From Eledone cirrhosa (Eukaryota): a stretch of DNA of 64,000 bases. Made by a program: the position numbers and the translations under genes. Where the stretch lies: positions 90,458,001-90,522,000 of the forward strand of contig OZ024746.1 of NCBI GenBank assembly GCA_964016885.1, read 5' to 3'. The first letter of the stretch is position 1. Every line of letters starts with the position of its first letter. Of the stretch, positions 23,985 through 25,954 are shown one piece after another. The notes below the pieces were generated by a model, which had not been told where the DNA came from, did not search any database, and was given only the letters and a program-made list of their open reading frames with translations.

Positions 23985-25954
23985 CTATACAACATATTCT
24001 ATTAAATAATCAGGGTAAGCTTGGGCACTATCAAATATAACAAAAATCTTTGGGTCCCATATGTTGTCTACACAAGAGTCATAGCATTTTCCAAATGGTT
24101 CGGCACATGGATATAAAGGTGGGGCTTTCTTCAGGCTGCTGTTACCACCCGTGTACTTTCCCACGAGAACTTTGGCAATGAACATTTTCCGCGTGCAATT
24201 TGTAGGTATTGAGGTCCGTGTTGTATGGGGTTCTCCATTTTGGCAGTAGAGTTGGAGTGTGTTTGCTGTATGTTGAGCCTGGATAGCTTGTGGGGTTGGG
24301 GGTTGAGGCTGGGGCTGTGGAACCAGCTGTTGTTGTTGGGATGGTGCTGGAGGTGCTGGTGGTACTTTCACTATTAGTTTGGATTGTGAATGGCCAACAG
24401 TGCTGACTTTGGGACCAGAAGTTCCTGGTGGGATGGGCACAACAAAGCCTTTCCGCAGGAATATTTGTTGGGGTTGCTGTTGAGGTTGTACTGGGGCCTG
24501 GTGGTGGTGGTGGTGATGGTGGTGGTGGTGATAGTGATGTAAATGATGTGGTGTTTGTTGTGCAGCTTGTATATGCTGGGGCGGGGCTTGGGGTTGGTTC
24601 TGTGGAGGTACACCAGCTTGCTGTGCCATTACTTGTTGCTGAGTTTGCTGTTGCTGAGATTGTTGTTGAGATGGCACTCTTCCAAAAACAAGTTTCGGTT
24701 GGGTGTGAGACACCATATTAACTTTAGCTGCCGAAGCTCCTGTTTGGAAAGGGGACAAAAATTCTCCAAGTGTTATCAACTGAGGTGCTGAAGTAGATGT
24801 CACCTGTTGCAGTGTTGGCCCAACTTGCTGTGCTTGCTGGTGGTGTTGTGCTTGGGCTAACTGTGGAACTTGTGCAGCAGACTGCAATTGAGGAGATGGT
24901 TGTAGTTGTTGCACAGCCTGCAATTGCAGTAATGGCTGTTGAGCTTGTGATAGTTGCTGTGACTGCAGCGCCTGCGATGGTATTGCTGGTTGCTGGAGTC
25001 GTTGTGTTGCTTGTGCCTGCAGTCGTTGTGTGGGTTGTGTTTGAAGTCGTTGTGTGATGCGCTGCAGAAGGTATTTTTGCTGCTGCTGCTGTTGCTGTTG
25101 TTGCTGTTGTTGTTGCATTTGCTGTTGTGGTTGTGACAGTCCTCCAAAGATTAATTTAGAGTGTGAGTGTGAAGCCAAATGGCTTTTGGGATTAACAGCA
25201 GTTCCTGCCTGGAAGGGTACAACCAGAGGAATATGTTGAGGCGTGCTAGTTACAGGTACTGTCTGCAGTTGTTGGTGCACTAGCTGTTTAGGGGCTGTTG
25301 ACAGCACAAGAGGGGATTGCATAACCGTATTGTTAGCAGTTACAGTAGGACCAACATTGCCACTGGAAGGAAAGGATACAGTCAAATTTTGTAATGAATA
25401 TGAAGATGAAGATGAAGATGTTGAAGAAGATGAAGATGATGGGACATTAGAAGCAATGCCAACTGATGAAGTGTCTTGCATATTAGGCATATTTTGAACA
25501 GTTTGGTTCTTGTCTGCATCTGTCATTGGCATCATGACAATGTTTATGCGATTAGACGGGACTCTGTTTACAGCAGTGTTGGGGTTGTTAGTAGCTTTGA
25601 GAGTTGGACAACATATATTTGATCCTGCTCCAGGAGGTGCAGCCCCTAATAAAGCTTGGCTAACAAATGGGTTGTTACTAGAACTAGCCATTATGCTTCC
25701 TTGAGCTGTGTAGGTGGTCACTGAACTTGTGTAGCCTGTTAATTGCAGTGGTGCAGCTGCATTCATACTTGGTATATTAATGCTTGGACTTAACTTGAGG
25801 AAAGCATTTTTATTGTATGGGTTACAAAACACTTTAGTTGTCATTGCAAGGTTGTTAGAACTGACACGACCAGCTGGAATTGGACGCTGCCGTTTAATAC
25901 GAATGTCATCAGTAAATTGATGGGAGTATGAAGCCTCGCCTGCGAAGTAGGAGC
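23985..25954 (-). CDS. Terminal exon of mono-ADP-ribosyltransferase (PARP11/TIPARP/PARP12-like): GSYFA...SHQFT + ~570-aa low-complexity insert + RKMFIAKVLVG...YDSCVDNIWDPKIFVIFDSAQAYPDYLIEYVV*
   Basis: Acceptor ttgtttcattgcag in phase 1 completes YGHG|SYFA. The C-terminal PARP motifs are intact, with Ile at the catalytic Glu position (H-Y-I triad). The first 38 aa of ORF 23985..26069 are intronic. Confidence 0.93.

Follow-up and report, generated by a model that had tools for sequence, protein, structure and literature searches.

A low-complexity insert of 571 codons splits the catalytic domain of a PARP12-like gene with a RING1-type finger in Eledone cirrhosa and belongs to a family-wide loop insertion

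The window analysed here is the whole 64,000-nucleotide stretch of Eledone cirrhosa DNA under study, and positions given without a contig label count from its first letter. Its minus strand carries most exons of a gene that we located by tblastn with orthologues and with a RING profile. Joined across five introns, all of them GT-AG, the exons give a continuous 1,233-residue frame that closes with its only stop; in particular, the exon at 32303-32152 joins the exon at 25954-23985 in frame via a GT-AG intron. The exon search with orthologues did not locate an ATG exon in the gene model. From the 3′ end of the gene upwards, the features are as follows:

23985..25954, minus strand: last coding exon, with GSYFA (triad Tyr), the insert, the C-terminal ART half (triad Ile in P-K-I-F-V-I-F) and the stop
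32152..32303, minus strand: exon with FHGT (triad His), YGHG and the D-loop
40465..40610, minus strand: exon in which the ART domain begins
43259..43491, minus strand: exon with the conserved post-RING helix (RING1-IBR helix counterpart), plus a linker
52294..52342, minus strand: micro-exon of 49 nt, encoding the last two zinc ligands (7 and 8) of the RING1-like finger
52343..64000, minus strand: in-window portion of the intron toward the upstream exon outside the window
G000:C6:90541475-90542628, minus strand: 1,154-nt upstream exon, about 20 kb past the window end

The 1,154-nt exon supplies three SIM-like motifs, a disordered stretch of acidic character, the basic motif PRKKH and RING zinc ligands 1-6, and the protein reads, in order, three SIM-like motifs, acidic disordered region, basic motif, RING-type finger, long helix and ART domain. 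The finger starts at model residue 344 and has all eight zinc ligands, and the catalytic triad falls at H548, Y580 and I1214, positions read off an alignment with PARP12 and the accessible part of PMC2964712. In genome searches, of a kind that missed most mono-ARTs, the C-terminal exon had no further copy. A 1,006-codon frame at 47270-50290 (minus strand), in the intron between the micro-exon and the exon at 43491-43259, resembles a LINE-type endonuclease and reverse transcriptase when inspected by eye, and fragments of the same kind lie near 37563-38470; a 58-bp tandem array (26037-27001; 16.6 copies, 99% alike) lies about 80 nt upstream of the acceptor of the last exon.

The ART domain is PARP12-like, with an H-Y-I triad, and is split on the minus strand by 571 codons, from 25904 to 24192, bounded by SHQFTDD and RKMFIAKVLVG and free of in-frame stops. 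The initial annotation had described a catalytic domain that keeps all ART motifs around a Q/H/S/P-rich insertion of ~570 aa, and both parts of that description hold: the stop-free segment lies at the site it gave, and every motif it named is found in the spliced model. The insert follows the S-Y-S-H-x-Y/F helix, precedes the M-F-x-A-x-V-L-V-G strand and begins about 14 residues past the triad Tyr. Its features, all on the minus strand, are:

24192..25904, minus strand: low-complexity, acid-poor insert in an ART loop (model residues 595-1165)
25394..25441, minus strand: Ser-rich tract
25131..25268, minus strand: degenerate ~45-aa repeat, copy 1, ending H-S-H-S-K-L-I
25078..25128, minus strand: polyQ tract, mixed CAA/CAG, spanned by no listed contig
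24669..24806, minus strand: degenerate ~45-aa repeat, copy 2
24499..24536, minus strand: polyH tract
24354..24491, minus strand: degenerate ~45-aa repeat, copy 3

The remaining five frames over the insert contain 21-33 stops each, and the chance of an open frame this long, from base composition alone, is about 1e-11; the minus-strand frame as a whole (26108-23985) is open for 707 codons. Glutamine makes up 18.9% of the insert, followed by P (11.0%), S (10.3%), A (8.2%), T (7.9%) and H (4.6%), with D+E at 0.9%, which amounts to 5 acidic against 29 basic (K+R) residues. Glutamine is encoded by 71 CAA and 37 CAG codons. Since the longest pure runs are just Q13, H10 and S6, the insert is mostly mixed low-complexity sequence rather than homopolymer. 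The ~45-aa repeats emerged from off-diagonal scoring with shuffles, whereas BLAST self-comparison returned the diagonal only: their pairwise scores were matched by 0, 2 and 0 of 5,000 shuffles, and the off-diagonal score of the whole insert was 81 against 45 +/- 6, a value reached by none of 200 local shuffles. The core motif of the repeats is absent from every other protein in the collected set. In this lineage the insert appears to have grown by slippage at Q, H and S codons together with triplication of the ~45-aa unit.

Contigs assembled from four of the 24 listed sequencing runs were compared with positions 23450-26030. None of the runs is on record as RNA, and we take them as RNA because their contigs break off at the exon acceptor. 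Each of the four includes a contig that matched from 25138-25140 to 25952-25955, and no contig covered the intron stretch 25973-26030. Three contigs overhang the acceptor by 1,743-1,746 nt, against an upstream exon total of 1,734 nt in the model (a comparison of lengths, not of letters), and the run holding 0.92 of the words shows 1 difference in 818 letters on the acceptor-side piece. Contigs cover the insert in 4/4 runs, the polyQ tract excepted, at a depth like that on the ART pieces, and one X5 contig (23854-25069) runs from the insert through the polyH tract into the C-terminal ART half. The initial annotation had proposed RNA coverage as a check for an internal exitron; no joint that removes the insert occurs in any of the four contig sets, contigs being assemblies that drop rare isoforms. 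One long joint, from 23778 to 25402, was judged spurious, with 23 letters on its short side, GG..AT ends and a position at repeats.

We also compared the window with the sequence of a relative, for which 40 of 136 differences were listed; 12 of these lie in the 3′ UTR and were set aside, and the part of the insert compared is 24192-24804. Among the listed differences, 18/23 in this part of the insert and 5/5 in the ART domain are synonymous. The share for the insert compares with 23% expected (p 4e-8, with no transition/transversion correction), and third codon positions hold 18 of the 23 listed insert substitutions (p 1e-5). Both insert indels among those listed are 3 nt long; in one X5 contig, 3 of 13 gap letters are itemised. 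These data support purifying selection on the insert. Open-frame statistics, transcript contigs and codon-level selection together rule out an artefact or a chance frame, and the coding constraint that had been claimed for this segment is upheld by the absence of stops, the synonymous excess and the retention of the segment in spliced transcripts.

The first protein search gave 19 best matches of 413-1,054 aa in which PARP is the sole Pfam match, 12 of them from named molluscs; its vertebrate matches carry the WWE family PF02825. Profile searches with the shared RING region added a chiton, limpets and pulmonates to the set, as well as the annelid Owenia and the brachiopod Lingula. Besides the window's RING-ART family, the set includes a sister family with an IBR domain between RING1 and ART:

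P0069, P0070, P0072, P0073, P0076, P0077, P0082: sister family RING1-IBR-ART (Lingula, bivalves, gastropods)
P0084, P0087, P0091, P0092, P0100, P0115: sister family RING1-IBR-ART, further rows (Lingula, bivalves, gastropods)

With loop length measured between the profile halves of the ART domain, the loop is at least 50 aa long in 38 of 39 RING-ART rows, six of which are isoforms or near-copies, with a median of 196 across chiton, bivalves, gastropods and annelid; the loop of the window is the longest of the 39, at 572 on this measure. In the sister family, 9 of 13 rows (three of the 13 being near-copies) have at least 50 aa, up to 620 in Dreissena, and four have a short loop, for a range of 2-620; across the rows with inserts that were compared, the range is 13-620 aa. 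None of 26 vertebrate PARP7/12/13/14-like rows, which are by-catch of the searches rather than a survey of invertebrate PARPs, reaches 50 aa, their loops being 4-8 residues long. The premise that this loop is short in known PARPs thus stands for PARP7/12/14-type rows on the same measure. The view of the insertion as peculiar to this genome does not: the counts for orthologues and sister family rule it out, and inserts of this kind, whose prevalence in invertebrate PARPs had been named as grounds for abandoning the idea, are the norm within this orthologue group.

Rows with inserts of at least 50 aa share a composition, with S/P/Q/T/N/G at 46-65% and D+E at 0.7-5.6%. Insert identity is 67-92% in six close pairs and 26-28% in four distant pairs, the latter no better than that of the N-terminal disordered region. 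Inserts that do not otherwise align (P0001, P0008, P0013, P0018, P0046, P0071, P0074, P0087) have a short candidate motif, P-P-A-H, in common, mostly 33-75 residues past the GSYF motif. Full-length ORFs with the insert lie on unnamed contigs of 3.0-4.9 kb from other species. The ESM Atlas contains a matching cluster of 62 members, most of them molluscan, under the name 'serine-rich adhesin' (score 0.91), and an Atlas search with the RING-IBR-ART part of the Lingula protein gave a best lead of 0.79. Protein searches returned no cephalopod orthologue; a 'longer' search yielded just Pinctada and fish PARP14, which is weak evidence. Three gene models are odd: the partial Lymnaea model (P0063) has a 13-aa loop and is the sole RING-ART row below 50 aa; the Batillaria model (P0045) has a 75-aa loop, lacks the post-loop strand and looks mis-spliced; and the Aplysia model P0065 ('mucin-5AC') stops before the ART domain. 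These may be prediction errors, or lineage-specific splicing or loss. Within the present genome, the loop of PARP1-like genes is short. A PARP1/2-like gene occurs here as two inverted copies with near-identical exons, G000:C23:885055-888682 (plus strand) and C23:1444641-1448286 (minus strand), either a duplication or an assembly artefact.

Structure models were made for two orthologues, not for the spliced protein of the window, and such predictions lean on known PARP structures. The model of P0009 (Saccostrea), with a 346-aa insert, matches PARP15 on both sides of the gap (179/192 residues, Z 16.7, rmsd 3.6 A), with the D-loop and GSYFA helix below pLDDT 50; Foldseek on the full model aligned one half only, whereas VIA-align aligned both. 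For the ART fragment of P0214, from the bivalve clade, with an insert of ~110 aa and 48 aligned rows, pLDDT is 80-98 over the ART blocks and 42-62 in the insert, and the fragment matches PARP12 with Z 27.3 and rmsd 1.6 A over 178/182 residues. The catalytic halves are therefore predicted to reassemble into one ART while the insert stays disordered, in line with the disordered surface loop that the initial annotation had placed on the fold: in both models the insert loops out and the ART domain still assembles. Across the 48 aligned rows, H, Y and neighbouring NAD+-site residues are invariant or nearly so, and the PARP fold carries an H-Y-aliphatic triad in place of H-Y-E, as in clade 3 mono-ARTs. 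These residues suggest that the protein is catalytically active as a mono-ADP-ribosyltransferase. In a tree of the ART halves, the gene falls inside a 27-row mollusc clade (SH-aLRT 96). RING-IBR-ART rows form a clade (97/96), RING-ART rows form a weak one (82/55), and deeper branches do not separate: with PARP11 outside the sample, p-AU is 0.50 for the family with TIPARP and 0.55 for the family with the sister family.

The architecture shared by the family is N-terminal SIM-like motifs, an RNF216-type RING1 finger and then the split ART, with no WWE. The family RING profile matches RNF216 with E 1.8e-6, far above the next match, and Lingula matches the RING1-IBR of RNF216 with E 1e-17 over 136 residues; the closest RING folds for the model are RING1s of RBR ligases, at a Z of 6-7, in the middling range. 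Among 32 family rows, 30 show the full eight-ligand RING1 pattern, and so does the window's model. IBR is absent from the window's family and detected by Pfam in the sister family (Lingula, molluscs). Because the order in the latter is RING1-IBR-ART, the ART domain occupies the place that RING2 has in RBR ligases; a RING2 motif occurs in 0/45 rows of both families, compared with 41/114 other matches. Some members of the sister family carry CUE-like, FN3, SH2 or RanBP zinc-finger domains in front, and one row is annotated as RNF216-like and one as ABL1.

In RBRs, as set out in passages of PMC9834252, RING1 binds the E2, a RING2 cysteine accepts ubiquitin and the RING1-IBR helix forms an allosteric ubiquitin site. 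The RING and following helix of the family are 61-100% identical in 10/10 pairs, about as conserved as the ART domain. Position C1+2 is Cys in 35/37 RNF216-like RBR rows and mixed, mostly polar, in the 30 full-pattern family rows; the central-helix position is Tyr in 25/37 RNF216-like rows and K, Q or R in 28/30 family rows. A predicted complex of the RING-helix fragment with ubiquitin scored 0.00, which is evidence neither way. In our view the finger more probably survives as an interaction module than as an active ubiquitin ligase.

A SIM-like pattern, devised after viewing the sequences and used with no control, occurs in 26/31 family rows, and from it SUMO binding may be expected. RNF216 itself has a SIM and a CUE domain and is nuclear in germ cells, according to parts of PMC13153464, and in a screen described in parts of bioRxiv 10.64898/2026.06.26.734426 it scored beside SUMO-targeted ligases as a SUMO-independent backup. 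A PLDLS-type motif occurs in 19/31 family rows and is missing from the window's protein; it lies at a similar position, within the N-terminal 200 aa, in most bivalves, abalones and Gigantopelta, and is absent from pulmonates, the limpet, the chiton and Owenia. PLDLS is a CtBP-binding motif (PMC7993866, in part), and orthologues that carry it would be candidates for CtBP binding. Orthologues carry a basic motif, PP[RK]K, for which the window's protein has PRKKH, and a nuclear location may be expected from it.

The gene thus appears to be a member of an old mollusc-annelid family that combines SIM-like motifs, an RNF216-derived RING1-type finger and a PARP12-like ART. The reading we favour, which we put at a little under an even chance, is of a nuclear mono-ART in which the SIM-like motifs would dock the enzyme on SUMOylated proteins, the RING would serve as an interaction module, and the acid-poor disordered loop would be an arm for interactions or condensates that brings partners together near the active site. 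It builds on the insertion site common to the family, the transcripts with the insert, the selection on its codons, the H-Y-I residues and the eight RING ligands; the arm or condensate role itself is a proposal. Against this reading are the low confidence of the D-loop and GSYFA helix in the long-insert model, the low identity of inserts in distant pairs and their wide spread in length, the lack of an insert in the Lymnaea model and in 4 of 13 sister-family rows, the missing PLDLS in the window's protein, and the dependence of TiPARP condensates on a WWE domain. Of the interpretation in the initial annotation, a coding, transcribed and selected segment, predicted to be disordered and to leave the ART fold able to assemble, survives, and a peculiarity of this genome and a domain architecture like that of PARP7/11/12/14 do not.

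An unlikely but serious alternative is that the insert is a tolerated passenger, a polar loop that grows and shrinks by slippage and duplication under selection for no more than an open frame and a soluble sequence. The span of lengths (13-620 aa), the several rows whose loop is short, the poor identity between distant inserts, and the short loop of PARP1-like genes and unrelated motif of tankyrase in this genome would all follow from it. However, almost every orthologue row, chiton and annelid included, keeps the insert and has the acid-poor composition in common, three ~45-aa repeats are retained here, and the synonymous excess between close relatives is strong. Quite improbable, in our judgement, is a rewired RBR ligase, in which RING1(-IBR) holds E2-ubiquitin or ubiquitin and the ART modifies ubiquitin, the E2 or ubiquitinated targets. 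The RING1-IBR-ART order without a RING2 motif, the conservation of RING and helix, and the identity of that helix with the allosteric ubiquitin site of RBRs (PMC9834252, in part) suit such an enzyme; the divergence at C1+2 and the central-helix Tyr, both conserved in RNF216-like rows, argues against it, as does the loss in the window's family of the IBR, which is half of the ubiquitin site.

The insert might also act as a brake, or the enzyme be a pseudoenzyme, with the NAD+ site unfolded or covered until the loop is cleaved, modified or bound. The start of the insert so close to the triad Tyr, in a segment that is low-confidence in the model with the 346-aa insert, would fit, but that segment is modelled confidently once the alignment is deeper and the insert shorter, and H, Y and the NAD+-site surroundings are near-invariant; we regard this as very unlikely. 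About as improbable is an exitron or retained intron, with the active enzyme made from a minor short-loop spliced form. The 13-aa loop of the Lymnaea model and the Batillaria model that skips part of the region hint at such a form, rare forms are lost from contigs, and no contig crosses the polyQ tract; yet all four runs lack an insert-removing joint and show even contig depth, candidate donors nearby are weak, acceptors lack pyrimidine tracts, and both codon-level selection and the full-length insert-bearing ORFs of other species oppose it.

A bolder extension, which we think improbable, is that these proteins are lophotrochozoan RBRs whose catalytic RING2 was replaced by a mono-ART: the SIMs would recognise SUMOylated targets, RING1(-IBR) would bind E2~ubiquitin or ubiquitin chains, and the ART would attach ADP-ribose rather than ubiquitin, in condensates nucleated by the disordered arm that has grown from the catalytic domain. 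Crosstalk between ADP-ribose, ubiquitin and SUMO usually involves separate proteins. If the RING2-to-ART reading is true, one polypeptide would join all three kinds of signalling. As a natural fusion with both long- and short-loop members, the family offers direct tests of the coupling and of what the loop does. More generally, a PARP catalytic domain can hold hundreds of residues predicted to be disordered beside its active-site tyrosine, a loop insertion is kept across molluscs, an annelid and a brachiopod, and a conserved fusion of an RBR-derived RING1(-IBR) with a mono-ART has been hidden under the labels 'uncharacterized', 'serine-rich adhesin', 'mucin-5AC' and 'RNF216-like'. As an insertion, the feature is less singular than the initial annotation held; as a family, it is more interesting.

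The nearest catalytic domains are those of PARP12, TIPARP (PARP7) and PARP11, with PARP12 the best PDB sequence match, and they share the H-Y-I triad with a Pro two residues before the Ile. They differ in the loop, which is 4-8 aa there, a median of 196 in the family and 571 here, and in domain architecture, the family having a RING1-type finger and SIM-like motifs and no WWE or CCCH. No WWE or CCCH match to Pfam was obtained in 10 orthologues at E<=1, in other family rows or in the window's last exon, the part scanned. The likening to PARP7/11/12/14 accordingly fails at the level of architecture: orthologues are without WWE, CCCH and macro domains and have instead an RNF216-type RING1 that had been missed. 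With RNF216/TRIAD3 the family shares RING1 and the following helix, an N-terminal SIM (SIM-like here) and, in the sister family, the IBR; it differs in having an ART in place of RING2 and its catalytic Cys, in the loss of the IBR from the window's family, and in the divergence of RING1 positions conserved in RNF216. The SUMO-targeted ubiquitin ligases RNF4 and RNF111 have clustered N-terminal SIMs and a RING. The family resembles them in its clustered N-terminal SIM-like motifs and RING fold, and differs in that its RING is of the RBR RING1 type, its output is an ART and ligase activity is not indicated.

TiPARP, a mono-ART whose nuclear condensates are linked to ubiquitination (parts of PMC7306777), is the nearest functional analogue; according to the same source, its condensates need the WWE domain, which is absent from the family. 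Clade 3 architectures in the accessible part of PMC2964712 comprise RRM/UIM, macro, WWE/CCCH and one Dictyostelium U-box; neither IBR nor insertion occurs in its main text, and its supplementary alignments could hold members. Aplysia PARPs are named solely by vertebrate best match in the corresponding part of PMC8195618. The literature searched, with incomplete coverage especially of subscription journals, held no description of the family or the insert. The parts are known, and the RING1-ART architecture and the split catalytic domain appear to be undescribed. The closest precedent for the site is tankyrase, in which (as seen in this genome's tankyrase) an extra motif lies in the same ART loop, directly after the S-K-S-N-Q-Y helix; there it is a folded CHCC zinc finger of ~15 aa in a poly-ART, described in parts of PMC10450202 as a transformed ART loop, whereas in the family it is a disordered region of 75-620 aa. 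The same source, in part, describes RWD domains (PARP6/8) and KH domains (PARP9/10/14) split by long, mostly disordered inserts. Accessory domains are interrupted in those proteins, whereas here the interruption is in the catalytic domain itself.
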